A stretch of 64,000 nt of DNA from Candidatus Nomurabacteria bacterium (GTDB lineage: Bacteria > Patescibacteriota > Minisyncoccia > Phycocordibacterales > UBA9973), in NCBI GenBank assembly GCA_026396065.1, contig JAPLXO010000011.1, positions 10,748 through 74,747 on the forward strand, written 5' to 3'. Under the pieces are notes generated by a model. The model had not been told where the DNA came from and searched no databases. It saw only the letters and a list, made by a program, of their open reading frames with translations. This document shows, one piece after another, positions 4,746 to 57,691 of the stretch (positions are counted from its first letter, which is position 1; every line of letters starts with the position of its first letter). Made by a program: the position numbers and the translations under genes.

Positions 4746-4769
4746 CTTTTTTTATGCTAAAATGACTTT

Positions 4770-5378: not shown

Positions 5379-5439
5379 TTGCTTTTTTATTTAAAAATGT
5401 TATTATCTGTTTTAGATAAAGCAACATCGTGAAGTACGG

Positions 5440-6703: not shown

Positions 6704-6741
6704 AATTATTAATCATTAACAATTAATCAAATAAAAAATAT

Positions 6742-8637
6742 ATGTCAAAAATAATAGGAATAGATTTGGGTACTACAAATAGTGCGGTTGCGATTATCGA
6801 AGGAGGACAACCAAAAATAATAGAAAATATCGAAGGAGCGAGAACAACTCCGAGTATTGTTTCTGTTGCAAAAAACGGAGATCGTCTCGTCGGCCTTCTT
6901 GCGAAGCGTCAGGCGGTGACGAATCCAGAAAATACCGTCTACGGTATCAAGCGTTTTATGGGTCACAATTTTGAAGATCCAGAAGTGCAAAAGGACTTGA
7001 AGAATGCTTCATTTAAATTGCAAAAAGGAAAAGACGGCGGAGTAGAAGTAATGATTGGCGACAAATGGATGCGCCCAGAAGAAATCTCTGCGATGATTTT
7101 AACTAAAATAAAAACAGACGTCGAAGCAAAGATCGGAGAAAAAATCACTGAAGCTGTTATTACAGTTCCAGCATATTTCAACGATGCACAAAGAAAAGCT
7201 ACAAAGGATGCAGGTATGATCGCAGGACTCGATGTAAAAAGAATCATCAACGAGCCGACAGCGGCAGCCCTCGCTTATGGTTTCAATAAAAAGAAAAATG
7301 AAAAGATCGTCGTGTATGACTTTGGAGGAGGAACTTTCGATGTATCAGTTCTCGAAATCGGTGACGATGTTATCGAAGTAAAATCAACAGATGGCGACAG
7401 TCACCTCGGAGGTCGTGATATAGATCACAAGATTATTGCTTGGATCGCAGAAGAATATAAAAAGACTTCTGGCGTAGATGTTCGTAACGACAAATTGGCC
7501 TTGCAACGCCTCGATGAAGCTGCTGAAAAGGCTAAAATCGAGCTTTCTACTGCTATTGAAAGTGAAATCAACATTCCTTTCATCACTTCTACTGCAGAAG
7601 GTCCACAGCACTTATTGCTCAAAATGACTCGTGCACAACTCGAATCAATTGCCGATGAATATATCACTCGTTCTATCGAAATCACAAAAAGAGCAATGAC
7701 TGCTTCTGGTTTCAAAATGGAAGACATGAATGAAATCATAATGGTCGGAGGACAAACAAGAATGCCAAAGATTGTCGAAGAAGTGAAAAAAGTTTTTGGA
7801 AAAATGCCAAACCTCTCTATCAATCCAGATGAAGTCGTCGCCCTCGGTGCTGCAGTGCAAGCCGGAGTATTGCAAGGTGATGTGCGTGATGTTTTACTCC
7901 TCGATGTTATTCCACTTTCACTAGGTATCGAGACACTCGGAGGTGTGGCTACAAAATTAGTCGAGAGAAATACTACTATTCCATCTAGTAAATCACAGAC
8001 ATTTTCTACGGCAGCTGACAATCAAACAAGTGTAGAAATTCACATCGTGCAGGGTGAGAGACCAATGGCTTCAGATAATAAAAGTTTAGGACGATTTATT
8101 TTGGACGGAATTCCACCAGCACCGCGTGGTATGCCACAAGTCGAAGTTTCTTTTGATGTTGATGCAAACGGAATTCTAAATGTCACTGCAAAAGATAAAG
8201 CTTCAGGTAAAACTCAAACAATTAAAATCGAAGCAAGTTCAGGATTGAAAGATGAAGACATAAAGAAGATGCAAGCTGATGCAGAAATGCATGCTGAAGA
8301 AGATGCAAAGAAAAAAGAATTGGCAGAAATTAAAAATTCTTGTGAAATGACTATTTACTCTGCAGAAAAAGCTTTGAAGGACAATGAAGCGAAAATTCCT
8401 GCAGATGTAAAAGATGGTGTGAATGCAAAAATTACAGCACTTCGCGGGTTGAAAGACGGTACAGATATGGAAGCTATCAAAAAAGCCCTCGAAGAACTTT
8501 CAGCCGAAATGTCCAAGATCGGTGAAGCTATGAGTAAAGCCGGCGAGCAAGCTCCAGCCGGAGGTGCACCCGAAGAACAAGCTACCGAAGTCAAGGGCGA
8601 AGAAGTAAAGCCAGAAGGTGAAGAGCCTAAAGCATAA
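6742..8637 (+). CDS. dnaK: Molecular chaperone DnaK (Hsp70)
   Basis: 631 aa; [12 protein letters not shown]; DLGGGTFD; substrate-binding domain; acidic C-terminal tail. Confidence 0.97.
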
Positions 8638-8644
8638 AAACTAA

Positions 8645-8676
8645 CAAAAAAAAGCTCAAAAGAGCTTTTTTTTGTT
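8645..8676 (+). terminator. Rho-independent terminator after dnaK
   Basis: aaagctc-aaa-agagcttt plus T8. Confidence 0.7.
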
Positions 8677-8701
8677 TTTAGTAACTGATATAATAAAACC
8701 T

Positions 8702-10978
8702 ATGGAAGATATTGTAATACCTGAAAATAAAGACATGACCTATCTTGGTCAGACTACTTTTCGTAACAAAAATGTTTTATTTGGAATAAAACGCAAAGAT
8801 CGTCGTCAGCACTGTTATTTGCTCGGAAAATCAGGTACTGGTAAATCTGCTCTCATGACAAATATGGTTTTGCAAAACATCATTAATGGTGATGGTGTTT
8901 GTGTTGTCGATCCACACGGAGAACTTGTAGAAAGTATTGTATCAGCTATTCCAGCTCATCGTTTAAAAGATGTTATTTATTTTAATCCTGCTGACACTGA
9001 TTATCATATTGGTTTTAACGTTTTAGAGTTATTAGATCCTCGTTACAAACATCTTGTCGCCTCAGGATTGATGGGAATTTTCACAAAAATTTGGGCGAAT
9101 GCATGGAGTGCTAGAATGGAATACATTTTAAATAATTGTATTTTGGCTTTACTCGATACACCAGGTACTACACTTCTTGGAATTCCTAGAATGCTCGTCG
9201 ACAAAGATTATCGTCAGAAAATAATTACAAATTTGAAAGATCCAGTCATTAAAGCTTTTTGGATTCATGAATATGAAGCTTGGCAAGATAAATTTCGAAA
9301 TGAAGCTATTGCTCCGATTCAAAATAAAGTCGGACAATTTCTTTCTACTTCCATTATTCGTAATGTCGTAGGGCAATCAAAAAGTACAATTGATCTTTTT
9401 CAAGTAATGAATGAAGGAAAGATTTTTTTGGTGAATGTTTCCAAGGGACGTATCGGTGAAGATAACTCTGCACTTCTCGGAGGTATGCTTATTACAAAAA
9501 TTCAGCTCGCTGCAATGGAGCGTGTGCGTATTCCAGAAGAAGAACGTAAAGACTTTTACCTGTATGTCGACGAATTCCAAAATTTCGTAACAGATGCTTT
9601 TGCTAGTATTCTTTCAGAAGCTCGTAAATATCGTTTAAATCTTACTATAGCTCACCAGTACACAGCTCAGCTTGTCACTGCCAATGGTTCCGCTGTGCGT
9701 GATGCTGTATTCGGCAACGTAGGGACTATGATTATTTTCCGTGTAGGTGCTGACGATGCTGAATTCTTAGAAAAAGAATTTGAACCAGAATTCATGGCTA
9801 CAGATATTGTGAACTTGCCAAACTATCGAATTTATTTAAAATTGATGATTGATGGTATTACGAGTAGACCTTTTTCTGCTAAGACACTTGCACCGATGAA
9901 TAAAAACAGTAAGGTAAATACTGAGGAAGAAGTGATAAAGTCTTCAAGAACTCTGTATGGAAGATCGAAAGAAGTCGTTGAATCAGAAATAAATTCTTGG
10001 AGTGGAATGTCTTTGGGAGACATAGTACCTCCAGGTGGCAATGCTGGTGCAGATGTAGAAAAATTCCCTGTAATTTGTTCAAATTGTATGAAAGAAACTA
10101 CCGTGCCATTCAAGCCAGAAGAAGGACGCGCTGTATATTGTAAAGAGTGTATTGCTAAAATGAAGACAGGCGAGTTGAAGCCTACAAAAGGATCAGCACG
10201 TCAAATAAAATACGATGAAGAAACATTTTTCAAACCTCTTGCCGATCTAGGTATTGAATTTACTTCAAAAGAAGCTCCACCAAAAGTAATACCAAAGCCA
10301 TACATGCCACCAGTATCAAAACCAGGAATTTTTGGGACTGTTAAAAAAGTCTTTCAAAATACTGTTGGAGCAAAACCTCCATCTCCAATTTCAAATATAC
10401 CAAAACCAATTTCTCCAATTACTACTACTAATGTTAATGTTCCAGTTCCACCAAAACCTCCTATAAATATTTTTAAACCACCAACTCCTTCTCTTAATAT
10501 TCCAACACCGGTAATACCAACACCTACTCCACCAGTTAAACCTATTATTTCTACTACTCCAATTGAGTCACAAAAACCTCAAACTGTAGTTGAAAAACCA
10601 AAAGAAAATACAGCACTTAAAGATTTGTTAAATAAAGCCTTGGCACCAAAGCCAATTACACCAGTAGTACCACCTATACAGCCAGTTGTTCCAGAAATAA
10701 AAAAAGTTGAACCAGAACCAATTTCTTTAGCTTCTTTAAAAAATCCAACAATTGCAACTCCTATTTCACAAAATAAAGATAGATCTGCGAGTGCTGAAAA
10801 TATGAATAAGTTAAAAGAATTTGTAGCAAAAATTGCAGAACCTCTTAAAGCAGAAGAAATAAAAAAAGAGGAACAAATTCCTACACAACCTCCAGTCACA
10901 CCTGCACCTACTCCGACGATACAAAAAACAACAAAAGAAGTTCCAGAAGATGTATTAAGGAAAATTTTAGAAGAATAA
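8702..10978 (+). CDS. VirD4/TraG/TraD-like (FtsK-HerA superfamily) P-loop ATPase with C-terminal CxxC-CxxC zinc ribbon and ~250-aa Pro/Thr-rich low-complexity tail
   Basis: Walker A LLGKSGTGKS; Walker B FYLYVDEFQNF; EARKYRLNLTIAHQYTAQL resembles the TraG-D_C/VirD4 motif (...RGYGI.L.LI.Q...QL). Zinc ribbon CSNC...x...YCKEC. No N-terminal TM helices. The ORF track starts at a TTG (8672) inside the dnaK terminator, so the first ATG (8702) is preferred. Paralog of 20448-21920. Confidence 0.6.
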   Translation: MEDIVIPENKDMTYLGQTTFRNKNVLFGIKRKDRRQHCYLLGKSGTGKSALMTNMVLQNIINGDGVCVVDPHGELVESIVSAIPAHRLKDVIYFNPADTDYHIGFNVLELLDPRYKHLVASGLMGIFTKIWANAWSARMEYILNNCILALLDTPGTTLLGIPRMLVDKDYRQKIITNLKDPVIKAFWIHEYEAWQDKFRNEAIAPIQNKVGQFLSTSIIRNVVGQSKSTIDLFQVMNEGKIFLVNVSKGRIGEDNSALLGGMLITKIQLAAMERVRIPEEERKDFYLYVDEFQNFVTDAFASILSEARKYRLNLTIAHQYTAQLVTANGSAVRDAVFGNVGTMIIFRVGADDAEFLEKEFEPEFMATDIVNLPNYRIYLKLMIDGITSRPFSAKTLAPMNKNSKVNTEEEVIKSSRTLYGRSKEVVESEINSWSGMSLGDIVPPGGNAGADVEKFPVICSNCMKETTVPFKPEEGRAVYCKECIAKMKTGELKPTKGSARQIKYDEETFFKPLADLGIEFTSKEAPPKVIPKPYMPPVSKPGIFGTVKKVFQNTVGAKPPSPISNIPKPISPITTTNVNVPVPPKPPINIFKPPTPSLNIPTPVIPTPTPPVKPIISTTPIESQKPQTVVEKPKENTALKDLLNKALAPKPITPVVPPIQPVVPEIKKVEPEPISLASLKNPTIATPISQNKDRSASAENMNKLKEFVAKIAEPLKAEEIKKEEQIPTQPPVTPAPTPTIQKTTKEVPEDVLRKILEE

Positions 10979-11380: not shown

Positions 11381-13135
11381 ATGAATCCAGAAATTAAAAA
11401 TTGTCAGAACTGTAAAAAAGAATTTACGATAGAAACGGAAGATTTTTCTTTTTATAAAAAAATGAAAGTTCCACCACCGACATTTTGTCCAGAGTGTAGA
11501 ATGCAAAGAAGATTGGCTTGGAGAAATGAGCGTGGACTATATCGTAGAAATAGTGATGTTCCAGGGAAAGAAAACGAACAGATAATTTCTACTTATCCAC
11601 CTACTATAAATGTAAAAGTATACGACAATGATTATTGGTGGAGTGATAATTGGGAACCTACTGATTATGCTATGGAGTATGATTTTTCACGACCTTTTTT
11701 TGAACAATTTCGGGAACTTTTGTCTAAAGTGCCATTAATAAGTTTTGCTGATAGTAAAGGAGTAAATAATCAATATTGTAATTATATTACTGAAGGTAAG
11801 AATTGTTATATGCTTTCTGCTGCATGGAGTTGTGAAGATTGTTTACTTGGAAATAGAAATTCTTTTTGCAAGGAAACTGTTGATTCTTATGTGTGTCATA
11901 AAACGGAATTTTCTTATGGAAATATTTATTGTGGAGAATCATATAAATTATTTTATAGTGAACATTCGTACAATTGTACTGATTCATATTTTCTTTACGA
12001 CTGCCGAAACTGTATTGATTGTTTTATGTGTTATGGTTTGAGAAATAAATCTTACTGTATTGAAAATGTTCAATACACACAAGAAGAATATAGAGAAAAA
12101 ATGAAAGATATAAATTTGGGTAATTATGAAACTGTTGAAAATAATAAAACTTATTTTAATAAATTTAAACAAAATGCAGTTCGTAAGTACGCCAATAATA
12201 CAAAATGTATAAATGTGACGGGAGATAATGTCGAAAATGCAAAAGATGCACAATATTGTTTTGATTTACCAGGAGGAATTGAAAATATTAAATACTGTAA
12301 TTGGGGTACGTATGGATTAAAAGATTCTTATGATACAGGGCCGGGGACAGGTGGTAAATCAGAAATGACCTATGAAGGAGTTAGTATTGGTGTAGCAAAT
12401 GCTAATTGTTCTTTTGGTGCAATTGTTTGGAATTCTAGTAATGTACAATATGCTTTTAATTGTTACTCTACGAATAATTGTTTTGGTGTCGTCAGTTTGA
12501 AAAGTAAATCTTACTGTATTTTAAATAAGCAGTATACCAAAGAAGAATATAATGAATTGCTACCGAAAGTCATTCAACATATGAATGATATGCCTTATGT
12601 AGATAAAAAAGGACGTGTGTATAAATATGGGGAGCTTTTTCCAATAGAACTTTCTCCTTATGCATACAATGGTGCAACGGTACAAGATTTTTTCCCTCTA
12701 GATAAAGCCACTGCAGTAGGAGAGGGTTTTAATTGGCAAGATGAAACGGAGAGGAATTATGAGGTTACTTTACCAGCCTCAAGTATTCCTTTAAATATTG
12801 AAGAAGTTAAAAATGATATACTGTCGCAAACTTTAGGTTGCATAAACGCTTCAGGAGATGTACAGGGTTGCACGAAGGCATTTAGGTTAGTTTCAAAAGA
12901 ATTAGATTTTTATAAAAGATTTAATATTCCTATTCCACATTTTTGTCCAAATTGTAGACACGCGGAGCGTGTCAGTAGACGCAACCCTATGAAACTTTGG
13001 CACAGACAATGCATGTGTGATAAAACAAATCATGGTCATGCAGCTAAGTGTGAAGTTGAATTTGAGACTGCATATGCTCCAGATAGACCAGAGATCGTCT
13101 ATTGTGAAAAGTGTTACCAACAGGAGATTTATTAG
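11381..13135 (+). CDS. Cysteine-rich zinc-ribbon protein, paralog 1 of unrecognised family (584 aa)
   Basis: N-terminal CQNC...FY.K.KVPPPTFCPECR zinc ribbon; two internal copies of C..C.DCF.C..LRN..YCI.N.QY..EEY; C-terminal FY.R.N.P.P.FCP.CRH.ER...NP.KLW.RQC.C...RPEIVYCEKCYQQEIY. Confidence 0.7.
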   Translation: MNPEIKNCQNCKKEFTIETEDFSFYKKMKVPPPTFCPECRMQRRLAWRNERGLYRRNSDVPGKENEQIISTYPPTINVKVYDNDYWWSDNWEPTDYAMEYDFSRPFFEQFRELLSKVPLISFADSKGVNNQYCNYITEGKNCYMLSAAWSCEDCLLGNRNSFCKETVDSYVCHKTEFSYGNIYCGESYKLFYSEHSYNCTDSYFLYDCRNCIDCFMCYGLRNKSYCIENVQYTQEEYREKMKDINLGNYETVENNKTYFNKFKQNAVRKYANNTKCINVTGDNVENAKDAQYCFDLPGGIENIKYCNWGTYGLKDSYDTGPGTGGKSEMTYEGVSIGVANANCSFGAIVWNSSNVQYAFNCYSTNNCFGVVSLKSKSYCILNKQYTKEEYNELLPKVIQHMNDMPYVDKKGRVYKYGELFPIELSPYAYNGATVQDFFPLDKATAVGEGFNWQDETERNYEVTLPASSIPLNIEEVKNDILSQTLGCINASGDVQGCTKAFRLVSKELDFYKRFNIPIPHFCPNCRHAERVSRRNPMKLWHRQCMCDKTNHGHAAKCEVEFETAYAPDRPEIVYCEKCYQQEIY

Positions 13136-13137
13136 TT

Positions 13138-14886
13138 ATGGAATCAAAAACACCAAAATCAGACGTACTTATAGATGAAATCCTTGCAGGGCTTGTTCCA
13201 CATACACGTATATGTAAATGGAAAGGCGAGCATCAGCATTGTGAAGGCAAATTTGAAATTACGAATGAAGATATTTCGTTTCTTAAAATGCTTCGAGTTC
13301 CTGCTCCAAATTTCTGTCCTACTTGTAGAAGAATTAAAAGACAATCTTTTATGGGTTTCGCGCAACTTTTTAAGAGGAAATGTGATGTAGTTGGACACGA
13401 TGAATCTATCATCTCTGTTTTTTCTAAAGAATGCCCTTTCCCAGTTGTTGATTATAAGTATTTTGCTTCTGATGAATTTGATTCTTTTTTATATCGTAAA
13501 AATTATGAAGAGAATACAAGTCCAATGGAACAACTTTTTTCTCTAAGGAAAATTTTTCCAATGCCTTCATTTTTAAATCGTGATTCTTCGAGTATAAATA
13601 GTGATTATTCAAATGGAGGTAGAGATAATAAAAACTGTTATTACACTAGTGGTTGCTATACGGTAGAAAATGCTTGGTATTCAAATATGCTCGTGAAGAG
13701 CAAAGAAATAATGGATTGCCGAACTGTAAAACATTCAGATCATGTATATTCGAGTCTTTATTCAGACCATCTATATAAATCTTATTTTACTTATTTTTCC
13801 AATAGCTGTACAGATAGTATGTTTCTTTTTGATTGTAGAAATTGTATAAACTGTTTTGGTTGTGTAAATTTGCGTAATGCTAAATATTGTATTTGGAATG
13901 AACAATATAGTAAAGAAGATTATGAACAATTTATAAAATCAAATCTACCATTCTCTAGAGATTTTTTAGAAGAAAATAAGCAAAAATTTTGGCAACTTGT
14001 AAAATCACTTCCAATAAATGCTTCTAGAAATATGACTGTAAAAAACAATGTAAATGGTGTGATGAATGTGAATTCGAATAATTTATATGATGTCACAGAA
14101 TCTAGTAAAGCAGAAAATGTACGTCATGCAGATGGCGCTCTTACACATCAAAATTCTATGGATTTACTATACTCGGGCGGATCTAGTTTGCTTTACGGTA
14201 CTATAAATATCGGTTCTCAATCGAGCAACGTTCGATTTTCAGTTTCATGTAAATTTTCTACTAACTCAGAATTTATTTTTAATTCAAATAATCTAGATAA
14301 TTGTTTTATGTGTTTTGGTTTGCAGCATAAATCTTATTGTATTTTAAACAAACAATATAGCCCAGATGAATATTTTAAAATAATAGATGAAATAAAATCT
14401 GACATGATAAAAAGGGGAGAATACGACGACGGACTAAGTTTTGAATTTTCTGCCCAAGCATATAATTTTTCATTAGCCCAGATTTCTTTTCCTCTTACAG
14501 AACAAGAAATAATAAAATTAGGTGGTTATATGGCTGAAGAGCCAGAAAGTAATGCCGGAGATATGAAAATTTTATCAAAAGAAGAAGTGCCACAAACAAT
14601 AGATGAAGTATCAGATGACATTGTAGATTATGCAATTAAATGTGAGGTTACTGCTAGGCCTTTCAGGATTACTCCTTCAGAATTACAATTTTATAGAATA
14701 ATGAAATTACCACTTCCTACTATACATCCGATAGTCAGAATGAGAAAATATTATGAACTGGCACCAATCGGTAAAAGCTACCCTGCTGTTTGTTCTAAAT
14801 GTGGTAAATCATTTCGATCATTATTTGATCCTAAAGACGGTTATAAGCTATACTGTGAAGATTGTTATAAACAAGAAGTATATTAA
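13138..14886 (+). CDS. Cysteine-rich zinc-ribbon protein, paralog 2 (583 aa)
   Basis: Same architecture; starts 2 nt after the paralog 1 stop; ends ...YCEDCYKQEVY. Confidence 0.7.
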   Translation: MESKTPKSDVLIDEILAGLVPHTRICKWKGEHQHCEGKFEITNEDISFLKMLRVPAPNFCPTCRRIKRQSFMGFAQLFKRKCDVVGHDESIISVFSKECPFPVVDYKYFASDEFDSFLYRKNYEENTSPMEQLFSLRKIFPMPSFLNRDSSSINSDYSNGGRDNKNCYYTSGCYTVENAWYSNMLVKSKEIMDCRTVKHSDHVYSSLYSDHLYKSYFTYFSNSCTDSMFLFDCRNCINCFGCVNLRNAKYCIWNEQYSKEDYEQFIKSNLPFSRDFLEENKQKFWQLVKSLPINASRNMTVKNNVNGVMNVNSNNLYDVTESSKAENVRHADGALTHQNSMDLLYSGGSSLLYGTINIGSQSSNVRFSVSCKFSTNSEFIFNSNNLDNCFMCFGLQHKSYCILNKQYSPDEYFKIIDEIKSDMIKRGEYDDGLSFEFSAQAYNFSLAQISFPLTEQEIIKLGGYMAEEPESNAGDMKILSKEEVPQTIDEVSDDIVDYAIKCEVTARPFRITPSELQFYRIMKLPLPTIHPIVRMRKYYELAPIGKSYPAVCSKCGKSFRSLFDPKDGYKLYCEDCYKQEVY

Positions 14887-14888
14887 TT

Positions 14889-14951
14889 ATGGAAACAAAA
14901 AACTGTCAAAATTGTCCCGATTTTTTAAAAATCGAGGATCCACGATTCTAA
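14889..14951 (+). pseudogene. Truncated ancestral N-terminal leader of paralog 3 (METKNCQNCPDFLKIEDPRF*), interrupted by a ~100-nt palindromic insert
   Basis: 20-codon ORF begins like the other paralogs (METKNCQNC). It then runs into the inserted element and a stop. ATGA overlap with the restart codon at 14951. Confidence 0.5.
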
Positions 14952-16684
14952 TGAATTATAATCGGGATAAAAAAGATATGGAACATCAATCAGAAAGTAA
15001 AATATGTCAGAATTGTAAGACTTCGTTTATTATAAAAGAAGAAGATTTTAATTTTTATGAAAAAATCAAAGTTCCTCCACCGACATTTTGCCCGGAGTGT
15101 AGAAACATACAACGTTTTGCTACTAGAAATTCAAAATCTTTATATAAACGTGCTTGTGATGGCTGTAAAAAAGAAGTTATATCACGATTTTCACCGCATA
15201 ATCCAGCAGTTATGTATTGCCGAGATTGTTGGTGGAGTGATAATTGGGACGCACTTTCTTTTGCAAAAGATTACGATTTTTCTAAAACTTTTTTTGAACA
15301 ATTTAAAGAACTTCTTTTCTCTGTACCACATGTATCACTTTTAAATAATAATATGCATGAAAGTGATTACTCAAACATGGAATCAGATGATAAAAGATGC
15401 TATCTAACCTTTGGAGGACATTATAATGAAGATTGTGCTTTTACTGAATATAGTCTTTGGGGACGTGAAGTATATGATTCTTATTGGTCATTAAAATCGG
15501 AACAATGTCATGGATGTTCTCTTGTTGAGCGTTGCTATCGCACTTATGGATCTGAACAATGTTATGACTGTCTCGATACACTTTTTTCTTTTGATTGTAC
15601 AAATTGTTCAAATATTATTGGTTGTATAGGGTTGAGAAATAAATCATATTGTATTTTTAATCAACAGTATTCTAAAGAAGAATTTTTTGAAATTAAAGAA
15701 AATTTAAATATTGGTTCATATAGAGCTCGAAAAGAACTAGAAGAGAAATCAAAAACATTTTGGCTTAGTTTCCCACATAAAGAGAGTTTGATAACTCATT
15801 CAAATGATTGTACTGGAAATAGTATAGTTAATTCAAAAAACTCAAAAAACATTTGGCAGGCAGATAGTGTTGAGGATTCCAAATATAGTTATATCGCAGC
15901 TTGGAATAAAAACTGTTATGACGAAACATCGGCTGGTAATGACGAGCTTTGTTATCTGTGCGCAAATGGTGGTGGTTTATATAATTCTATCGCTATATTA
16001 TATTCTTTTGGTTCAAATGTAGATAAGAAAAAACAAAGTTTTAATTGTGGTTATTCTTATACTGTTCTCAACTGCACTGATTGTTTTGGTTGTGTAGGAA
16101 TTCGTAATAAACAATATTGTATTTTGAACAAACAATATACCAAAGAAGAGTATTTTGAACTTTTAGAAAAAATTAAAAAAAGTATGTTGGAAAATCCTTT
16201 CCAATCACAAAAGACAGGACAAGTATTTAGCTATGGGGATTTCTTTCCATCAGAGCATTCACTTTTTGCTTACAATGAGACAGTAGCACAAGATTTATAT
16301 CCAAAAGATAAAGATTCTGCAGAGGCTCAAGGTTTTGTTTGGCGAGAAGAACCTGAACCACACTACGACTTTAATCATTATCAAATTCCTGATGATATAA
16401 AAGACGTAGATGATTCTATTTTGTCTCAAGTGTTAAAATGTGAAGAAAGTGGTAAGGGTTATAAAATAGCTCGATCTGAGTTAGCATTTTATCAAAAAAT
16501 GCAGATTCCAATACCTCGTATTTCGCCACTTATACGTATTCGAGACCGTGTACGTGCATTGTTACCATTTAAACTTTTTGATAGGCAATGTCAGAAATGT
16601 AATAAGGATATAAAAACTCCTTATTCTCCAGAACGCCCAGAAATTATCTACTGTGAAAAGTGTTACCAGCAGGAAGTATATTAA
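14951..16684 (+). CDS. Cysteine-rich zinc-ribbon protein, paralog 3 (577 aa from restart Met)
   Basis: MNYNRDKKDMEHQSESKICQNCKTSFII...; same family architecture; ends RPEIIYCEKCYQQEVY. Confidence 0.65.
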   Translation: MNYNRDKKDMEHQSESKICQNCKTSFIIKEEDFNFYEKIKVPPPTFCPECRNIQRFATRNSKSLYKRACDGCKKEVISRFSPHNPAVMYCRDCWWSDNWDALSFAKDYDFSKTFFEQFKELLFSVPHVSLLNNNMHESDYSNMESDDKRCYLTFGGHYNEDCAFTEYSLWGREVYDSYWSLKSEQCHGCSLVERCYRTYGSEQCYDCLDTLFSFDCTNCSNIIGCIGLRNKSYCIFNQQYSKEEFFEIKENLNIGSYRARKELEEKSKTFWLSFPHKESLITHSNDCTGNSIVNSKNSKNIWQADSVEDSKYSYIAAWNKNCYDETSAGNDELCYLCANGGGLYNSIAILYSFGSNVDKKKQSFNCGYSYTVLNCTDCFGCVGIRNKQYCILNKQYTKEEYFELLEKIKKSMLENPFQSQKTGQVFSYGDFFPSEHSLFAYNETVAQDLYPKDKDSAEAQGFVWREEPEPHYDFNHYQIPDDIKDVDDSILSQVLKCEESGKGYKIARSELAFYQKMQIPIPRISPLIRIRDRVRALLPFKLFDRQCQKCNKDIKTPYSPERPEIIYCEKCYQQEVY

Positions 16685-16686
16685 TT

Positions 16687-18459
16687 ATGGAAACACGAAA
16701 TTGTCAAAATTGTAAAAAAGATTTCACTATAGAGGTGGAGGATTTTAATTTTTATCAAAAGATAAAAGTTCCACCACCGACGTGGTGCCCAGAGTGTCGA
16801 CTTATTCGTCGTCTTGCTTATCGTGAAGAACGGTCTTTTTATAAAGATGAATGTGATAAATGCGGTCATGAAATAGTAAGTTTATTTGCACCAGAATCTG
16901 ATCTTCCTGTCTTTTGTTCTCCTTGTTGGTGGAGTGATAGTTGGGATGCTACATCTTATGGAAAAGACTACGATTTTTCTCGTCCATTTTTTGAGCAATT
17001 ATATCAATTAATGAAAGTCGTACCAAATCAGGCTACAAATACACGAAATTGTACTGATTGTAAATATTCTCATGGCAATATACGTTGTAAAAATTGTACT
17101 TTTGTTTTTGCTGGTATACAGTCTATTAATTGCTATTATTGTTCAACACCGATTTTCACAAAAGATTCTTTTGATTCAAGCTTTATTATAAATGCTGATC
17201 ATGTATATGAAGGTGTACATATAGGGGGAATATATAATTCAAAATTTATTTATTTTTCTGATGAATGCTTGGACTGTTCTTTTATTTTTAATTGTGTTGG
17301 ATGTTCAGATTGTTTTGGTTGTGTAAATTTAAGAAATCAAAAATATTGTATTTTTAATATTCAATATTCTAAAGAAGAATATAAAAAAGAAATTTTAAAA
17401 TGGGATCTAGGTAGTTATGAAAATTTACAAAAAGCACGAGAACTTTTTATGAAACTTTACCATAAAACACCAAGACGTTTTGCATTAATTTCAAATTCTA
17501 CAAATTGTATTGGTGATGATATTCAAAATACTAAAAATTGTAAAATATGTTTTTCTGCTACTCATGGAGTAGAAAATTCTAAATTTATTTTTCAATGTGG
17601 ATTATTGTTGAAAGATAGTTATGATGTGACACTAGGCGGAGATACTTCTGAGCTTGCATATGAAGTAAATGGTAGCACTCAATCACAAAAAAGTTTTTTT
17701 TGTAGGGGTAGTAATAACTTAAGAGATGTTGAATATTCAGATAATATATACAATGGATCCAATCTTTTTGGTTGCGTAAAATTGAGACATAAAAAATATT
17801 GTATTTTAAATAAACAATATACAAAAGAAGAATATGAAGATTTAATACCAAAAATAAAACAGCATATGATAGATATGCCATATGTTGATAAAAAAGGACG
17901 AGTCTATAAATATGGGGAATTTTTTCCAGTAGAAATAGCTTTATTTGCTTACAATGAAACCTGGGCACATCAATATTTTCCTATTACAAAAGAAAAAGCA
18001 ATAGAACAAGGTTACAATTGGCGTGATCCGATAGAAAGGGATTATAAAATAACTATTAACATTGGGAATTTGCATAATCATATTAAAGATGTGACTGATT
18101 CTATTTTAGATGAAGTGATAGAATGTGAACATAATGGAAAAAACTGTAATCAACAGTGCACTACTGCTTTTAGAATTTTACCAAATGAATTGGGTTTTTA
18201 TAGACAAATGAATTTGGCTTTGCCTAGAATATGCCCAAACTGTCGTCATTATGAAAGATTAAAAAAAACAAATCCACCAAAATTATGGCATGGAAAATGT
18301 ATGTGCGATGGTGTAGAATCAAGTAATAAAGAATATAGAAATACTATTAAGCATTTGCATGGAGAGGAGCCTTGCCAAAATGAATTTGAAACTTCTATAA
18401 GTAGTGAAAGAAAAGAAATAGTTTATTGTGAAAAATGTTATCAGGATGAATTTATATGA
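16687..18459 (+). CDS. Cysteine-rich zinc-ribbon protein, paralog 4 (590 aa)
   Basis: METRNCQNCKKDFTIEVEDFNFYQKIKVPPPTWCPECR...; ends KEIVYCEKCYQDEFI; first ATG is 16687 (the ORF-track start 16660 is an alternative codon). Confidence 0.7.
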   Translation: METRNCQNCKKDFTIEVEDFNFYQKIKVPPPTWCPECRLIRRLAYREERSFYKDECDKCGHEIVSLFAPESDLPVFCSPCWWSDSWDATSYGKDYDFSRPFFEQLYQLMKVVPNQATNTRNCTDCKYSHGNIRCKNCTFVFAGIQSINCYYCSTPIFTKDSFDSSFIINADHVYEGVHIGGIYNSKFIYFSDECLDCSFIFNCVGCSDCFGCVNLRNQKYCIFNIQYSKEEYKKEILKWDLGSYENLQKARELFMKLYHKTPRRFALISNSTNCIGDDIQNTKNCKICFSATHGVENSKFIFQCGLLLKDSYDVTLGGDTSELAYEVNGSTQSQKSFFCRGSNNLRDVEYSDNIYNGSNLFGCVKLRHKKYCILNKQYTKEEYEDLIPKIKQHMIDMPYVDKKGRVYKYGEFFPVEIALFAYNETWAHQYFPITKEKAIEQGYNWRDPIERDYKITINIGNLHNHIKDVTDSILDEVIECEHNGKNCNQQCTTAFRILPNELGFYRQMNLALPRICPNCRHYERLKKTNPPKLWHGKCMCDGVESSNKEYRNTIKHLHGEEPCQNEFETSISSERKEIVYCEKCYQDEFI

Positions 18460-18572
18460 ATAAAAAAACAAAATTAAAAATAGAATCTTTAAAATATTTA
18501 ATTCCAATCTTGTTAAAAACAATTAAATTTCGAATTAAAGTTTGGCGACGTAAAAACTTTTAAATAAGATAT

Positions 18573-20315
18573 ATGGAAACACGAAACTGTCAAAATTGTA
18601 AAAAAGATTTCACTATAGAGGTGGAGGATTTTAATTTTTATCAAAAGATAAAAGTTCCAGCGCCGACTTTTTGCCCAGATTGTAGAACAATACGTAGACT
18701 ATGTTGGAGAAATGAAATGTCTCTTTTTAAGAGAAAATGTGATGCTCCTGGACATGAAGAAATGCTCATTACATGTTTTCCTCCAGAAGAAAAACTCACT
18801 GTATATGATTCTACATCTTGGTGGGGTGATTCTTGGGATGCAATACAATATGGAAAAGAATATGATTTTTCCAAATCATTCTTTGAACAGTGGAGAGATT
18901 TAAGAAATAGTATTCCACTTCAGGCACTTTCAAACATAAAAGCGACTAACAGTGATTATTGTAATGTGGCAGAGGGCAGTAAAGATAGCTATATGTGTTC
19001 GGGTACTTGGAAAATAGAAAGAACTCTTTACTCTAATAGAGTTTCAGAAACAAAAGATTCCTCCGACTTGTATATAGTGTATCGTTCTGAGCTTTGTTAT
19101 GAAGATGTAATATGTTCTGATTGTTACCATTTAATGTACTCTTTAGATTGTAAAAGTTGTGTTGACTCATTTTTTCTCTATGATTGTGTGGGTTGCACAG
19201 ACTGTTTTGGTTGTAGTAATTTACGCAATAAATCATATTGCATGTGGAACGAGCAATTGTCTAGAGAAGAATATTTTCGTCATTTAGCAGAATATAATTT
19301 AAAAAATCATGAGACTATATCGATTTTAAAAAATAAATTTAAAGAAATTTGTTTGCAATCTTTACATCGTTTTTCACTTCAAATAAAATCAGTAAATTCT
19401 ACTGGTGACAATTTAGAAGGTACAAAAAATTGCAAAGTGTGTTTTGATGTTTCTGGAAAAATGGAAGATTTGAAATATGTGCATTGGACAGCTATTAGTG
19501 CAAAAGACGCTTATGATTCTGGCCCTGGTATTGGACAAGTTGAACTTGCATATGAATCCTTTGACACTGGAATAGGTAATTTCCGTAGTCTTTTTACGAG
19601 TGTTGTATATAGTTGTAACGATGTTGAATATTCATTTAATTGTCATGGTTCTTCGAATTTATTTGGTTGTATTGGAATTAGAAATAAAAAATACTGTATT
19701 TTAAATAAAGAATATACAAAAGGGGAATATGAAATATTATTGCCAAAAATTAAAGAGCAAATGATGCAAGTTCCATATATAGATAAAAAAGGAATTAATT
19801 ATAGATACGGTGAATTTTTTCCAGCAGAACTTTCTACTTTTTGTTATAACGAAACACAAGCACAAGATTATTTTCCAATAGATAAGGAATATGCATCTAA
19901 AATGGGATATCGTTGGCGTGATAAAAAGATAAGTGAATATCACATCACTATTGAATCAAAAGATCTTCCAGATTCTCTTGATGACGTTACAGATTCAATC
20001 ACTAATGAAATTATTGGATGTGAAAATAAAGATAAGATGAGTAATTATTGTAGAGGAGCATATAAAATAACTATCGATGAGCTGAATTTATATCGCAAGC
20101 TTGGAGTACCATTACCAAGACTTTGTTTTCTTTGTCGGCATGAAACTAGATTAAAAATGCGTAATCCAATGAAGCTTTGGAATAGACAGTGTATGTGTGA
20201 AAAAGAAAATCATCAACATAGTGGTAAATGTGAAATTACATTTGAAACATCATACGATCCTAATAGACCAGAAATAGTATATTGTGAAAAATGCTATCAA
20301 GCCGAGGTTTATTAG
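18573..20315 (+). CDS. Cysteine-rich zinc-ribbon protein, paralog 5 (580 aa)
   Basis: METRNCQNCKKDFTIEVEDFNFYQKIKVPAPTFCPDCR...; C-terminus NPMKLWNRQCMCEKENHQHSGKCEITFETSYDPNRPEIVYCEKCYQAEVY nearly identical to paralog 1. Confidence 0.7.
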   Translation: METRNCQNCKKDFTIEVEDFNFYQKIKVPAPTFCPDCRTIRRLCWRNEMSLFKRKCDAPGHEEMLITCFPPEEKLTVYDSTSWWGDSWDAIQYGKEYDFSKSFFEQWRDLRNSIPLQALSNIKATNSDYCNVAEGSKDSYMCSGTWKIERTLYSNRVSETKDSSDLYIVYRSELCYEDVICSDCYHLMYSLDCKSCVDSFFLYDCVGCTDCFGCSNLRNKSYCMWNEQLSREEYFRHLAEYNLKNHETISILKNKFKEICLQSLHRFSLQIKSVNSTGDNLEGTKNCKVCFDVSGKMEDLKYVHWTAISAKDAYDSGPGIGQVELAYESFDTGIGNFRSLFTSVVYSCNDVEYSFNCHGSSNLFGCIGIRNKKYCILNKEYTKGEYEILLPKIKEQMMQVPYIDKKGINYRYGEFFPAELSTFCYNETQAQDYFPIDKEYASKMGYRWRDKKISEYHITIESKDLPDSLDDVTDSITNEIIGCENKDKMSNYCRGAYKITIDELNLYRKLGVPLPRLCFLCRHETRLKMRNPMKLWNRQCMCEKENHQHSGKCEITFETSYDPNRPEIVYCEKCYQAEVY

Positions 20316-21967: not shown

Positions 21968-22012
21968 ATGAATTCTGAAACAAAAAATTGCCAAAATTGT
22001 CCCGATTTTTAA
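21968..22012 (+). pseudogene. Truncated ancestral N-terminal leader of paralog 6 (MNSETKNCQNCPDF*), interrupted by the same insert as paralog 3
   Basis: Read directly; the same CQNC then cccgattttt... junction as at 14910. Confidence 0.5.
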
Positions 22013-22035
22013 AAAATCGAGGATCCACGATTCTA

Positions 22036-23775
22036 ATGAATTATAATCGGGATAAAAAAGATATGGAACATCAATCAGAAAGTAAAATATGTCAGAATTG
22101 TAAGACTTCGTTTATTATAGAACAAGAAGATTTTAATTTTTATGAAAAGATGAAAGTTCCTGCACCGACATGGTGTCCTGAATGTCGAATGGCACGTAGA
22201 TTCCTATTTATGAATACTTGGAATCTATATAGGCGAAATTGTGAAAAATGTGGGGAAAGTACACTTTCAATGTTTTCAGAAGATAAACCACATAAGGTTT
22301 TTTGTTTACCTTGTTGGTGGTCGGATGATTGGGATGGTACTGAGTATGCTATCAATTACGACCCCTCTCGTTCTTTTTTAGAACAGATGAAAGAGCTGGA
22401 ACTCAGAACACCTTGGATGGCTAATACTATGATGTATACAATGAATGTAAATAGCCCGTATTGTAATGCTACTGGTCCAGTAAAGAATTGCTACATGCTT
22501 TTTTGGGCAGATTATTGTGAAAATTCTTTTTACTCATCTTATTTGAATACTTTAAAAGATTCTATAGATTGTTATCGGGTAGCTCATAGTGAATTGTGCT
22601 ATGAAGGCACTGGTTTGAATAAATGTTACAGAACTTTCTTTTCGGAAGAGTGTGATTCTTGTACCGATACGTGGTTTTCAAGAGCTTGTTCTGGTTTAGT
22701 AAATTGTTTTGGTTGTATAAATTTAAGAAATAAAAATTATTGTATATTCAATGAACAATATTCTCAGGAAGATTATTTTAAAAAAGTAAAAGAATTTGAT
22801 CTAATATCTCATACGTCATTAGAAAAAATAAAAAAAGATGTTTTAGTGTTTTGGAGTAAATATCCAAGGCGATTTTATAACGGTAATGCGTTAAACAAAA
22901 ACGTTAGTGGTGATTATATTTATGAATCTAAAAATGCACAGAATTGTTTTATGGTTTCTGGGGCTGAAGATTGTAAATTTACTCAATTTGTAAGTATTCC
23001 AAAAGCCAAAGATTGTTATGATAATACTGGTTGGGGAGATGGTTCAGAAAGAATTTATGAGTCTACTGTTGTCGGCCTCGGAGCAAGTAATGTAAAATTT
23101 TCTAATGAATGCTGGCCTAATGCAATGAATACAGAATACTCTATCTATGCTATAGGTGGATGTAAGGATATTTTTGGATGTGTCAATTTAAAGAAAAAAC
23201 AATATTGTATTTTAAATAAACAGTATTCAAAGGAAGAATATGAAAAGTTAAAAGAAAAAATTATTAAAGATATGAATATAAATACTTTTATAGACTCAAA
23301 AAATAGAGTTTATAAATATGGTGATTCATTACCTATTGAATTGTCGCCATTTTCTTACAATGAATCAAATGCTGGTAAGTTTTTACCAATTACAAAAGAA
23401 AAAGCTTTAGAGCAAGGTTTCACTTGGTCAGAAGGAAAGGTGAATGAATATAAGATTACAGCCAAGGCGTCTGATTTACCAGATACAATCTCATATACTA
23501 CAGATGAGATACTAAACGACGTGTTTGAATGTGCTTCTTGTCAAAGAGCTTATAAATTTACTCTAGGTGAATTGAATTTAATGAGAAGACTTTCTTTACC
23601 ATTACCACATAAATGTTTTCATTGTCGTCAAGAATTTCGTTTTTCTAGATCTAATCAGGCTAGATTATACGATAGAAATTACATGAAATGCGGAGTAGAT
23701 TTAAAAACTTCTTATAATCCAGATAACACAGAAATAGTTTATTGTGAAAAATGCTATCAGCAGGAAGTATATTAG
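22036..23775 (+). CDS. Cysteine-rich zinc-ribbon protein, paralog 6 (579 aa from restart Met)
   Basis: MNYNRDKKDMEHQSESKICQNCKTSFII...; ends NTEIVYCEKCYQQEVY; the first 28 residues are encoded by nucleotides identical to paralog 3. Confidence 0.65.
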   Translation: MNYNRDKKDMEHQSESKICQNCKTSFIIEQEDFNFYEKMKVPAPTWCPECRMARRFLFMNTWNLYRRNCEKCGESTLSMFSEDKPHKVFCLPCWWSDDWDGTEYAINYDPSRSFLEQMKELELRTPWMANTMMYTMNVNSPYCNATGPVKNCYMLFWADYCENSFYSSYLNTLKDSIDCYRVAHSELCYEGTGLNKCYRTFFSEECDSCTDTWFSRACSGLVNCFGCINLRNKNYCIFNEQYSQEDYFKKVKEFDLISHTSLEKIKKDVLVFWSKYPRRFYNGNALNKNVSGDYIYESKNAQNCFMVSGAEDCKFTQFVSIPKAKDCYDNTGWGDGSERIYESTVVGLGASNVKFSNECWPNAMNTEYSIYAIGGCKDIFGCVNLKKKQYCILNKQYSKEEYEKLKEKIIKDMNINTFIDSKNRVYKYGDSLPIELSPFSYNESNAGKFLPITKEKALEQGFTWSEGKVNEYKITAKASDLPDTISYTTDEILNDVFECASCQRAYKFTLGELNLMRRLSLPLPHKCFHCRQEFRFSRSNQARLYDRNYMKCGVDLKTSYNPDNTEIVYCEKCYQQEVY

Positions 23776-23855: not shown

Positions 23856-24509
23856 ATGAGTAAAGATTACTATGAAGTTTTGGGAGTTAATAAAAGTGCT
23901 ACAAAAGACGAATTGAAAACGGCTTTTCGTAAGCTTGCGCACAAACATCATCCAGACAAGAATAAAGGGGATGATAAAAAATTTAAAGAAATAAATGAAG
24001 CGTATCAAACACTTTCAGATGACACAAAGCGTGCACAATACGATAGATTTGGTGCAGGTTATCAAAATATGGGTGGCGGACATCAACATGGTGGATTTTC
24101 TGGTGGAGGTTTTGAAGGATTTGACTTTTCTGGTTTTCAGCAAGGTGGACAAGAATTTGATTTTGGAAACTTGAATGATATATTTTCAGATTTTTTTACA
24201 GGAGGCAGAGGTGGTTTTCACACCAGAACTCCTCGTGGCCGAGACATGCAAACAGAAATTGAAATTTCTTTTATAGATGCTATTTTAGGTGTTGAAAAAA
24301 ATATTGTTATTACTGGGCATAAAGAAATAAAAATAAGTATTCCGTCTGGTATACGTGATGGCCAAACTTTAAAAATGACAGGAATGGGTGAAGTTATAAA
24401 AGATGGAAAAGCAGGAGATTTATATATAAATGTTCATGTTAAAGTTCCACACAAGATATCTAAAAAAGCTCGCGAACTTCTTGAAGAATTAAAAAAAGAG
24501 GGAATTTAG
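23856..24509 (+). CDS. dnaJ: DnaJ-like co-chaperone, minimal form (J-domain plus G/F region plus partial C-terminal domain; no CxxCxGxG zinc-finger domain)
   Basis: DYYEVLGV...HPDKN J-domain with HPD; Gly/Phe-rich linker; [13 protein letters not shown]-terminal segment; only 217 aa and no Cys repeats. Confidence 0.8.
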
Positions 24510-55933: not shown

Positions 55934-57691
55934 ATGGAAGCTGAGACAAGAAATTGCCAAAATTGTAAAAAAAACTTCTTAATAGAAGCAGAAGATTTTG
56001 ACTTCTACCAAAAAATGAAAGTTCCTCCTCCGACTTTTTGTCCAGATTGTAGATATAAACGTAGAGCTATATGGCGCAACGCCCGCCATTTATTTCGAGG
56101 TAAAGATTATATTACGGGCAAAGAATTATTTACCGGAATCCCTCCACAATCTGGATTATCTATATATGAACAAGAATACTGGAACAGTGATAAATGGGAT
56201 TCTTTAGAATATGGTATAGAGTATGATTTTTCTACTGCATTCTTTAAGCAGTTTAATCAACTTTTCCGTTCAGTCCCATATCCTGCAAAATCAATGCAGC
56301 GTTGTATAAATTGTGATTATTCAAACATGTGTGATGATATGAAAAATTGCTATTTGTGTTTCAACGCAACTTTTATGGAAGATTCTGCTTATTGTTGTAA
56401 TGGAAGTGTTTTAAAAAATTGTTTTGATTTAACTAGTTGCTATAATAGTGAATTTTGTTACGACAATGTTCGTGTAGATAAAAGCTATCACACTATTGGC
56501 TCAGTAAATTCAGAAAGTTGTGTTGACGTGTGGTTTTCAAAAAATTGTGTTGGTTGCACCGATTGTTTTGGTTGTGTAAATTTACGCAATGCTAAGTATT
56601 TCATTTTTAACAAACAATTTTCAAAAGAAGAATATTTTAATGCACTCAAATTAATGAATCTTGGTACATGGGATGGTTTTTATAAAGCTAAAATAGAGTC
56701 ACAAAATTTTTGGGAAAAATTCCCTATCAAATATATGCTAGGGTTTAGAAATCATGATGTACTAGGTGAAGATATAAAAGATAGTAAAAATGTAAAATAT
56801 AGTTATATCGTTCAACAAGGAGAAAATTTAAAGTATGTGCAAGATGTTCCGTTTGGCGGTGCTAGTAACTCATACGATTACACCTGTTGGGGAGTTAGTG
56901 CTTCACAAATATATGAATGTATGATTGTTGGAGAACAAGTGGACAATATGAAATTTTGTTTTGAATGCTGGCCGGTGTGTCAGGAATTAGAATATTGTAT
57001 AAATATGAGACGTTCAAAAAACTGCTTTGGATGTGTCGGCATGAAGGACGCTCAATATTGCATTTTAAATAAAAAATACTCAAAAGAAGATTATTTTGAA
57101 CTTGTAGAAAAAATCAAAAAGCATATGGATGAAATGCCTTATATAGATAAAAGAGGAAATTTATATAAATATGGTGAATTTTTTCCTGTGGAATTATCCC
57201 ATTTAGCATATAACGAAACATTACTTAATGATCAGTTTCCTTTAGATAAGGAAACTGTCGAAAAGTTAGGTTTTATTTGGCATGATATAAATAGAAAAGA
57301 ATACGAGGTCACTATACTTACGAAGGATTTACCTCAAATCATTTCAGAAACTCACGAAGCTGTAACTAAAGAAATAATCGAATGTATTGATTGTAAAAAA
57401 GCTTATAGAATTATTTTAAATGAATTTAATTTTTTAAAGAATTTTAACTTACCACTACCTAGAAATTGTGTTGATTGTAGATTCTCTCAAAGACAAAGGT
57501 TTATGGTACCGCCAGTTTTAAAATTTATTGAGTGTATGTGTTCTGGTTATAAATCTTCAAATTCAATTTATAAGAATAATCAAAAACACACTTCACACGA
57601 AGGTAAATGCCAAAATACTTTTCAAACTGCATACAATATAGAAAAAGAAATTATCTATTGTGAGAAGTGCTATCAATCAGAAGTTTATTAA
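55934..57691 (+). CDS. Cysteine-rich zinc-ribbon protein, paralog 7 (585 aa), isolated copy inside the cell-wall gene cluster
   Basis: MEAETRNCQNCKKNFLIEAEDFDFYQKMKVPPPTFCPDCR...; internal C.DCFGCVNLRN..Y.I.N.Q.SKEEYF twice; ends KEIIYCEKCYQSEVY. Confidence 0.7.
   Translation: MEAETRNCQNCKKNFLIEAEDFDFYQKMKVPPPTFCPDCRYKRRAIWRNARHLFRGKDYITGKELFTGIPPQSGLSIYEQEYWNSDKWDSLEYGIEYDFSTAFFKQFNQLFRSVPYPAKSMQRCINCDYSNMCDDMKNCYLCFNATFMEDSAYCCNGSVLKNCFDLTSCYNSEFCYDNVRVDKSYHTIGSVNSESCVDVWFSKNCVGCTDCFGCVNLRNAKYFIFNKQFSKEEYFNALKLMNLGTWDGFYKAKIESQNFWEKFPIKYMLGFRNHDVLGEDIKDSKNVKYSYIVQQGENLKYVQDVPFGGASNSYDYTCWGVSASQIYECMIVGEQVDNMKFCFECWPVCQELEYCINMRRSKNCFGCVGMKDAQYCILNKKYSKEDYFELVEKIKKHMDEMPYIDKRGNLYKYGEFFPVELSHLAYNETLLNDQFPLDKETVEKLGFIWHDINRKEYEVTILTKDLPQIISETHEAVTKEIIECIDCKKAYRIILNEFNFLKNFNLPLPRNCVDCRFSQRQRFMVPPVLKFIECMCSGYKSSNSIYKNNQKHTSHEGKCQNTFQTAYNIEKEIIYCEKCYQSEVY

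Follow-up and report, generated by a model that had tools for sequence, protein, structure and literature searches.

A cysteine-rich protein family with predicted zinc-finger ends and solenoid-like modules is encoded in arrays linked to VirD4/TraD-like ATPase genes in Patescibacteria

Multi-paralog gene arrays beside a coupling protein are exemplified by the Bep family of Bartonella, whose members are VirD4-dependent effectors with a BID domain and a charged tail. Patescibacteria depend on a type IV secretion system (T4SS), which is essential in this group (PMC12857230), and possess 5,713 VirD4-like genes, of which 148 lie near virB4 and for which a possible exaptation has been suggested (PMC12102498). 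At the level of single domains, the CxxC-x17-CxxC domain binds zinc in small proteins of Methanosarcina mazei, as determined by inductively coupled plasma mass spectrometry (ICP-MS) (PMC12704099). Here, we analyzed a 64,000-nucleotide (nt) stretch of a Candidatus Nomurabacteria genome, referred to below as the window, in which cysteine (Cys)-rich proteins of one family are encoded next to soluble VirD4/TraD-like ATPases. The host genome (800 kb, 97% complete) belongs to the Patescibacteria (Minisyncoccia/Paceibacteria-type), and the sequencing runs listed for its source are two freshwater metagenome DNA runs from one study, with no RNA run among them. The gene linkage points to an undescribed ATPase-plus-client system; a literature search found no description of the Cys-rich family or of its ATPase coupling.

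A preliminary description of the window had proposed seven open reading frames (ORFs) sharing one architecture, all of which are open at the following positions:

11381..13135, + strand: paralog 1 (P0001), 584 aa, 33 Cys; predicted zinc-finger-capped double beta-solenoid protein
13138..14886, + strand: paralog 2 (P0002), 582 aa, 24 Cys; most divergent window copy, starting 2 nt past the paralog 1 stop
14951..16684, + strand: paralog 3 (P0003), 577 aa, 33 Cys; exact CxxC-x17-CxxC at its C-terminal end
16687..18459, + strand: paralog 4 (P0004), 590 aa, 38 Cys; copy used for modelling
18573..20315, + strand: paralog 5 (P0005), 580 aa, 36 Cys
22036..23775, + strand: paralog 6 (P0006), 579 aa, 34 Cys; between the genes for ATPase 2 and DnaJ
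55934..57691, + strand: paralog 7 (P0007), 585 aa, 37 Cys; flanked by a D-Ala-D-Ala carboxypeptidase gene and by a GT4-family (MraY-like) gene, after which come ftsW and murG

These proteins of 577–590 aa align from end to end, with 31–46% identity and 69 invariant columns in the multiple alignment, and a seven-copy profile recovers each window copy in the genome at E-values of 1e-229 to 6e-279, so that the similarity of the seven ORFs reflects homology. The same values rule out Cys/Asn-rich low-complexity sequence as the source of the shared motifs. An internally duplicated module had likewise been proposed, and residues 95–245 of P0004 do match residues 246–400 (BLASTP E 4e-14), while a 102-nt DNA unit is present twice in each gene at a spacing of 450–468 nt; both observations set the module at ~150 aa, not at the ~200 aa originally estimated. 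The C-terminal unit echoes the N-terminal one, as had been noticed by eye (E 3e-7). Other details of the first description had to be corrected: the proteins contain fewer than the roughly 40 Cys attributed to each of them, with only ~20 Cys positions conserved across paralogs; paralogs 1 and 5, whose C-termini were thought to be near-identical, share 51% identity over their last 105 residues; and the family is not limited to seven members, as the genome harbours 16 full-length copies distributed over seven loci (five clusters). In all copies the maximal 19-residue Kyte-Doolittle mean is ≤1.36, in agreement with the proposed lack of transmembrane (TM) segments and signal peptides, and on this basis the proteins are judged to be made in the cytoplasm, as the description of an intracellular family implied.

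Only the ends of the proteins are matched by Pfam or NCBIfam models, namely by zf_Tbcl at residues ~3–45 and by zf_Tbcl_2/CxxC-x17-CxxC over the last ~35 residues, with a further ribbon at residues 49–81 in some copies. The proposed duplicated module between zinc-finger caps is thereby borne out, with a treble-clef finger of the zf_Tbcl type at the N-terminal end and a zf_Tbcl_2/CxxC-x17-CxxC ribbon at the C-terminal end. The conserved Cys sites, given in P0004 numbering with conservation over the 16 genome copies, are:

Cys site 1: C6/C9/C34/C37, 100% conserved in the 16 paralogs
Cys site 2: C56/C59/C77/C80, optional, 56–75%
Solenoid 1 cap cluster: C194, C203, C206, C209 and C212, 81–94% conserved
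Solenoid 2 cap: C363 and C372
Cys site 3: C480/C491/C516/C519
Cys site 4: C538/C563/C581/C584, of which C581 and C584 are invariant

The second N-terminal CxxC...CxxC motif noted earlier thus exists as site 2, but is a feature of a subset of the paralogs. Scores at the ends lie around the family cut-offs. For PF13451 (zf_Tbcl, cut-off 24 bits), two copies score above, at 25.3 and 24.6 bits, and the others reach 15–22 bits. For PF23477 (zf_Tbcl_2, cut-off 27 bits), the C-terminus of paralog 2 scores 28.1, and a genome scan found four sites in four family copies that reach 27 bits, two of them only when neighbouring in-frame matches are counted, and one of the four lying in paralog 4 as its optional N-terminal ribbon. 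The 36-bit cut-off of TIGR04272 was reached by no family copy; copies other than the exactly spaced paralog 3 have an insertion after the first knuckle of CxxC-x17-CxxC. From these matches we infer that the sites are probably occupied by zinc. The alternative of iron-sulfur (Fe-S) binding, offered alongside multi-zinc binding in the preliminary description, found no support: there is no Fer4-type match, and the family motif is CxxCxxCxxC (C203, C206, C209, C212) and not the CxxCxxCxxxC(P) of 4Fe-4S ferredoxins.

An invariant C-terminal tail (...EIVYCEKCYQQEVY) had been put forward as a possible recognition signal. This tail includes the last CxxC knuckle of site 4 and, in the model described below, forms the second CxxC knuckle and terminal helix (582–589) of a folded zinc ribbon (predicted local distance difference test, pLDDT, 80–85), and is therefore not a free signal. 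The family itself is as unrecognised as first suggested, having no full-length match in Pfam, NCBIfam, PADLOC or the PDB. PADLOC models gave no match for P0001 or P0004, a family-profile sequence search of the PDB returned only chance-level LIM and zinc-finger matches (E ≥0.3), and matches in the ESM Atlas were restricted to 'hypothetical' clusters from Minisyncoccota and Peregrinibacteria. Just two longer or fused forms were found (1,727 and 1,114 aa), neither with an informative domain.

The full-length AlphaFold2 model of P0004, built from 42 sequences, is compact (mean pLDDT 81; predicted template modelling score, pTM, 0.85) and places two beta-solenoids between pairs of zinc fingers. Residues 265–395 (solenoid 2) superpose on left-handed beta-helix (LbH) and antifreeze solenoids over 86–110 residues (Z 6–7.1; root-mean-square deviation, rmsd, 2.3–2.8 Å), the antifreeze matches of the central modules being ryegrass and budworm proteins. 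The modelled central modules are consistent with the beta-solenoid fold class, at Z-scores too weak to argue for homology. A Foldseek search of the full model against the PDB and BFVD yielded only zinc-finger-sized matches, none at E ≤0.001, and the C-terminal half modelled alone (pLDDT 88, pTM 0.53) had no solved-structure match, with Z<2 in a wide VIA-align search and nothing in Foldseek, which is not proof of a new fold. Among the 16 paralogs the solenoids are the least conserved part (majority-residue fraction 0.38–0.47), whereas within the orthologues of one paralog they are conserved (0.60–0.76), a pattern that is expected of paralog-specific surfaces. Strongly acidic 'DNA-mimic' solenoids were ruled out, as the solenoid segments carry a net charge of only -9 to 0.

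Within the genome the 16 copies take up ~28 kb, or 3.5% of the sequence, and are located as follows:

grpE-dnaK...dnaJ region: six family copies
Cell-wall cluster: one family copy (paralog 7)
S10 ribosomal operon, between rplB and rpsS: three family copies
Flanked by kinase genes and map, with a third ATPase gene a few kb downstream: one family copy
Beside map, bipA and rseP: three family copies
Singletons: two family copies

The S10 operon is interrupted (G000:C6:12000-31999, locus L019, 5467–12229); besides the three family copies, the insertion holds a 101-aa ORF and genes for NUDIX and CutA1 proteins. On another contig (G000:C7, L023), a large serine recombinase with Resolvase, Recombinase and Zn_ribbon_recom domains is encoded at 4166–5725; the paralog that diverges most (6468–8126) follows 0.7 kb downstream, with ruvX between the two.

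Pairwise identity among the 16 copies does not exceed 49%, 14 of the 16 are closer to a relative in another genome than to any in their own, and many metagenome genomes of the Paceibacteria type encode orthologues of P0004 at 53–78% identity, all of which marks the paralogs as old. A trace of younger exchange is the following repeat:

14892..15104, + strand, versus 21977-22189: 213-nt near-repeat, 93% identical, covering 59 nt upstream and ~50 codons of paralogs 3 and 6

Paralogs 3 and 6 are only 41% identical outside this tract and overall, despite its 93% identity, which indicates the footprint of a recent gene conversion at the 5' end and leader.

The family as a whole is large (>5,000 clusters at 50% identity, all named ones 'hypothetical') and patchily distributed. 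A census with one genome per genus identified carriers in ~510 of 36,145 genera; ~462 of the 4,172 Patescibacteriota genera carry it (Gracilibacteria ~204/385, Minisyncoccia ~150/1,387), as do 18 of 62 Bdellovibrionota_C genera, and Micrarchaeota gave weak matches only. Among sampled genomes, 23/151 of the class and 14/251 of the phylum are carriers, usually with multiple copies and with up to 24 first-look candidates, and two genomes of the same genus have one copy and none, compared to 16 here. Viral collections contained one partial match at a contig edge and one match confined to the zinc finger, so far as these collections indicate a family that is not phage-borne. In two unrelated metagenome contigs (L024, L025), a PaaX_M-domain protein (160–173 aa) and an ABC exporter (ABC_membrane, ABC_tran) adjoin family members and, judged by this recurrence, could be further regular neighbours.

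In the window, the gene order is grpE, dnaK, ATPase 1, DUF5654, five family copies, ATPase 2, one family copy and dnaJ. The genes accompanying the array are:

8672..10978, + strand: ATPase 1 (P0127), 768 aa; soluble VirD4/TraD/TrwB-like P-loop ATPase, no TM segment
11022..11336, + strand: DUF5654 protein (P0280); small membrane protein with one strong hydrophobic segment
20448..21920, + strand: ATPase 2 (P0128), 490 aa; soluble VirD4/TraD-like ATPase

A third ATPase encoded elsewhere in the genome is also a distant soluble relative of TrwB/TraD/VirD4, and with a maximal hydropathy of 1.0–1.5 none of the three has a TM-like segment. ATPase 1 contains a zf_Tbcl_2 ribbon scoring 48.9–54 bits, clearly above the cut-off, and in a scan of this genome that domain was found only in ATPase 1 and in the Cys-rich family; past the ribbon extends a Pro-rich, low-complexity tail of ~270 aa. 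The DUF5654 protein is a possible membrane partner of the ATPases.

The association with a VirD4-type ATPase, raised in the preliminary description, is real at the level of gene neighbourhoods, both in genus counts and at sampled loci. Considering 10 kb around the best family match in 300 carrier genera, with random places as control, an ATPase gene is present in 126/300 genera compared to 12 at random places (42/75, 51/150 and 30/75 by band of likeness), whereas HSP70 is found in 3/300 compared to 9 at random. Since the ATPase is enriched and HSP70 is not, the link is to the ATPase rather than a side effect of the dnaK operon, and DnaK is ruled out as the true anchor of the family. Six loci were also sampled in other families of the phylum, and in four of these, arrays of two to seven copies directly abut an ATPase gene. 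The ATPases at these four loci find their closest relative in ATPase 2 (49–51% identity), and two of them (~730–750 aa) are Pfam-confirmed as VirD4/TraD-like. Furthermore, when the ATPase 2 core was predicted in complex with full-length P0004, the score was 0.38, compared to 0.00 for the best of three controls, with ≥91% of contacts agreeing between runs and a partner pLDDT ≥88, which lends weak support to binding between the two modelled proteins. The mark used for such predictions is reached by 58/80 solved complexes and 2/110 mismatched pairs; at scores ≤0.60, it is reached by only 7/80 solved complexes and by both of the passing mismatches.

Taken together, these observations suggest a model, which we favour tentatively and short of calling it probable, in which zinc-stapled double-solenoid proteins are clients, as cargo or adaptors, of a repurposed VirD4/TraD-type ATPase. 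The family members would be cytoplasmically made multi-zinc structural proteins of one fixed architecture, comprising from the N-terminal end a treble-clef finger, an optional zinc ribbon, beta-solenoid 1 closed by a Cys-rich cap (C-x8-CxxCxxCxxC...LRN..YC), beta-solenoid 2, whose cap is simpler, a linker domain, a second treble-clef finger and a CxxC-x17-CxxC zinc ribbon. Their partner would be a soluble, repurposed, coupling-protein-like hexameric ATPase, for which the conserved zinc-finger ends may provide the common handle, the two variable solenoids supplying paralog-specific binding faces. With such a handle and such faces, genomes that have the system would carry a repertoire of 5–24 versions. 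Physical docking on the ATPase is what the model would require, and the ATPase may then remodel, load or move its clients.

Several observations weigh against this model. The complex score falls in a weak range in which, without a good prior, passes are more often wrong than right. Same-genus genomes with no or one family copy keep all three ATPases, with a 90% identical counterpart of ATPase 2 in a same-genus genome that has no family member, and two congeners have dnaK, ATPase 1, ATPase 2 and dnaJ side by side, with the 9-kb array missing; the ATPases are thus not dependent on the family. Moreover, 9 of the 16 copies lie >10 kb from any ATPase gene, in housekeeping operons or clusters (rplB/rpsS, map/bipA/rseP, ruvX and the cell-wall cluster), and two of the six distant loci sampled are singletons with no ATPase nearby.

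A more far-reaching possibility is that the proteins form an exported effector repertoire, passed as cargo by the VirD4-like ATPases to the Patescibacteria T4SS with the C-terminal region as signal. The genome does possess a T4SS locus, on another contig (G000:C4, ~74–88 kb, L043), which encodes a surface protein of the He_PIG type, a protein resembling PrgI/VirB3, a VirB4-like ATPase and a pilin-like protein of 690 aa with a T4SS_pilin-like segment. The VirB4-like ATPase (614 aa, in the ~79–88 kb part) scores 108 bits to TIGR00929 and matches P-loop_TraG and AAA_10, and the locus is of the monoderm type; an initial PF03135 scan for VirB4 was blank, a false negative, and the reading that the genome has no T4SS was rejected when TIGR00929 and Pfam models showed the locus. 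VirB4 is near-universal in the class, being found in 146/151 genomes. A channel is thus encoded in the same genome (VirB4, PrgI, T4SS_pilin-like), and export would also fit the ATPase linkage with its weakly predicted binding, the lack of a Sec signal, the basic last 73–110 residues (net charge +1 to +7), and the large divergent arrays whose copy number is 16, 1 and 0 among congeners. Carriers are mostly Patescibacteria, with some Bdellovibrionota_C and weak Micrarchaeota matches, lineages whose way of life is episymbiotic or predatory. In addition, no substrates are known for the essential T4SS of Patescibacteria (PMC12857230).

However, three features that define a VirD4 substrate system are missing. 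None of the three ATPases is a membrane-anchored coupling protein, their genes lie on contigs or regions other than virB4, and no disordered C-terminal signal is present, as the last ~30 residues are modelled as a zinc-ribbon strand and helix at the pLDDT given above. Passage would require the unfolding of a compact protein that has four or more zinc sites, the ATPases persist without the family, the orthologues of P0004 are well conserved, which does not resemble an arms race, and several copies reside inside ribosomal-protein and chaperone operons. We therefore consider export unlikely, and regard as equally doubtful its fullest form, in which the family would be the long-sought T4SS cargo, recruited via its zinc-finger ends by the soluble, repurposed coupling ATPases and delivered into host cells, with a repertoire that varies among closely related symbionts and thereby contributes to host range.

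Comparably unlikely is that the proteins act as stand-alone nucleic-acid-binding housekeeping factors, acting on RNA, the ribosome or the nascent chain, with the adjacency to ATPase genes incidental. In favour of it, fingers of the treble-clef and zinc-ribbon types are a typical element of proteins of the ribosome and of transcription, the family's C-terminal domain is basic, and copies stand in the S10 operon between the L2 and S19 genes, next to two methionine aminopeptidase genes, and near BipA, RuvX/YqgF, a tRNA-binding protein and grpE-dnaK-dnaJ. In an 800-kb genome, however, most neighbours are housekeeping genes by default, and the ATPase neighbourhood is enriched ~tenfold over random while that of HSP70 is not. 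The family is also absent from ~85–90% of the genomes of the class and phylum and ranges from 0 to 16 copies within one genus, which is at odds with a core translation role.

A conflict or defence system, in which a HerA/mad8-like NTPase would act with an array of diversified solenoids serving as sensors or decoys, directed for example at phage or host toxins, appears quite improbable. The ATPases do match the PADLOC mad8 model (E 1e-14 to 4e-15), with weak matches to HerA and DndH as well; the family is patchily distributed, its many-copy arrays being found in one congener and missing from another, and conserved ends around a variable middle follow the logic of a sensor family. Yet the Cys-rich proteins match no PADLOC model, Pfam and NCBIfam scans revealed neither a nuclease nor any other effector domain, and viral collections are all but free of the family. 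In this lineage, moreover, the ATPases belong to the conserved core of the dnaK operon, and the paralogs are ancient and conserved.

A function in metal storage or buffering, or as an Fe-S or redox protein, could be argued from the 24–40 Cys per protein, the conserved CxxCxxCxxC at the solenoid 1 cap together with C194, C363 and C372, and the CutA1 gene directly upstream of one array; yet only ~20 Cys positions are conserved, at discrete finger-like sites, no ferredoxin, radical-SAM or metallothionein match was obtained even at E up to 1, and a buffer would have no need of 16 anciently diverged paralogs with conserved non-Cys surfaces, so that we hold this to be very improbable. Least credible is a self-assembling beta-solenoid scaffold or cytoskeleton, bactofilin-like or trimeric like LbH proteins, for although structural neighbours such as LbH acyltransferases, dynactin p25/p27 and bactofilin (Z 4.8) oligomerise, Z under 8 is a common range for the tool, the bactofilin match has an rmsd of 10.3 Å, and Hexapep and Bactofilin models gave no match.

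Some further features of the window were recorded. A 34-nt perfect hairpin (8643-8676) lies between dnaK and the ATPase 1 gene. The window DnaJ (23856-24509) has only 217 aa, comprising a J domain and a portion of DnaJ_C, and is devoid of the CXXCXGXG zinc-finger domain, in contrast to the DnaJ encoded on a related Nomurabacteria contig (L024:20260-21366), which has this domain and measures 368 aa. Promoter-like sites occur at the level of shuffled sequence (83 compared to 84.4), and terminator-like sites exceed it (16 compared to 7.8, standard deviation 2.9), most of these being intragenic or on the minus strand and none being located on the plus strand between the Cys-rich genes; the scan was uninformative. 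Downstream of the array, at 28363-34614 (+ strand), a 2,083-aa protein with SpvB, TcdB_toxin_midN, FG-GAP and RHS-repeat matches represents a Tc-BC/Rhs-type toxin shell, an unusual cargo for an 800-kb genome, and directly after it a 148-aa ORF without family match (34617-35063) could be its cognate immunity or partner gene.

The tiny genome of this member of the candidate phyla radiation invests in 16 copies of an uncharacterised protein type of which congeners have one or none, and the soluble VirD4/TraD-like ATPase is a concrete candidate partner for them. If the coupling between family and ATPase is true, the orphan coupling-type ATPases of Patescibacteria would gain a function, and the clients, or even the cargo, of a secretion apparatus essential for epibiotic growth may be identified. 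Whatever their function, the zinc-finger/solenoid/solenoid/zinc-finger architecture and the unmatched C-terminal half make these proteins good targets for structural biology.

Compared to known systems, the individual parts of the family have recognizable counterparts. As in LbH enzymes and antifreeze solenoids (3ULT, 2QKX, 1M8N, 1EZG), the repeats are short (~11–13 residues), and as in the Tenebrio antifreeze protein, Cys residues are located on some coils; in contrast to them, the family lacks a hexapeptide signature (no Hexapep match, E up to 1), its solenoids have no identified active-site residues, and its members are judged to be cytoplasmic and to carry zinc fingers. The ribbon motif of the C-terminal 35 residues is the same as in the Methanosarcina mazei TIGR04272/PF23477 proteins (PMC12704099), which are stand-alone zinc proteins of ~40–60 residues, whereas in the family it is one of at least four sites in 580 aa and in most copies scores below the Pfam cut-off of PF23477.

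Similarly, ATPases 1–3 match TrwB_AAD_bind, T4SS-DNA_transf and TraG-D_C, the domains of TrwB/TraD/VirD4 (PDB 1E9R/1GL6), in Pfam domain-level matches that pass, and the Walker A region aligns to TrwB at E 1.4e-5. Against the TraD/VirD4 NCBIfam models, their best score is 53–54 bits with cut-offs of 250–647 (SXT_TraD, 53 compared to 366). They differ from TrwB/TraD/VirD4 in having no N-terminal TM domain, in the location of their genes in the dnaK operon in this lineage, and in their additional parts, which consist either of a zf_Tbcl_2 ribbon plus Pro-rich tail or of a soluble N-domain of 300–500 aa.

With respect to the Bep arrays, the resemblance lies in a multi-paralog family beside a VirD4-type ATPase, with a conserved C-terminal region, a variable remainder and no Sec signal. 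Unlike in Bartonella, the ATPase is soluble, is encoded far from virB4 and is kept in genomes without the family, the C-terminal end is modelled as a folded zinc ribbon, and both ends are conserved. Overall, the components are familiar, namely zinc fingers, a beta-solenoid and a P-loop ATPase, and what is new is their architecture, their organisation in arrays and their linkage to the ATPase.

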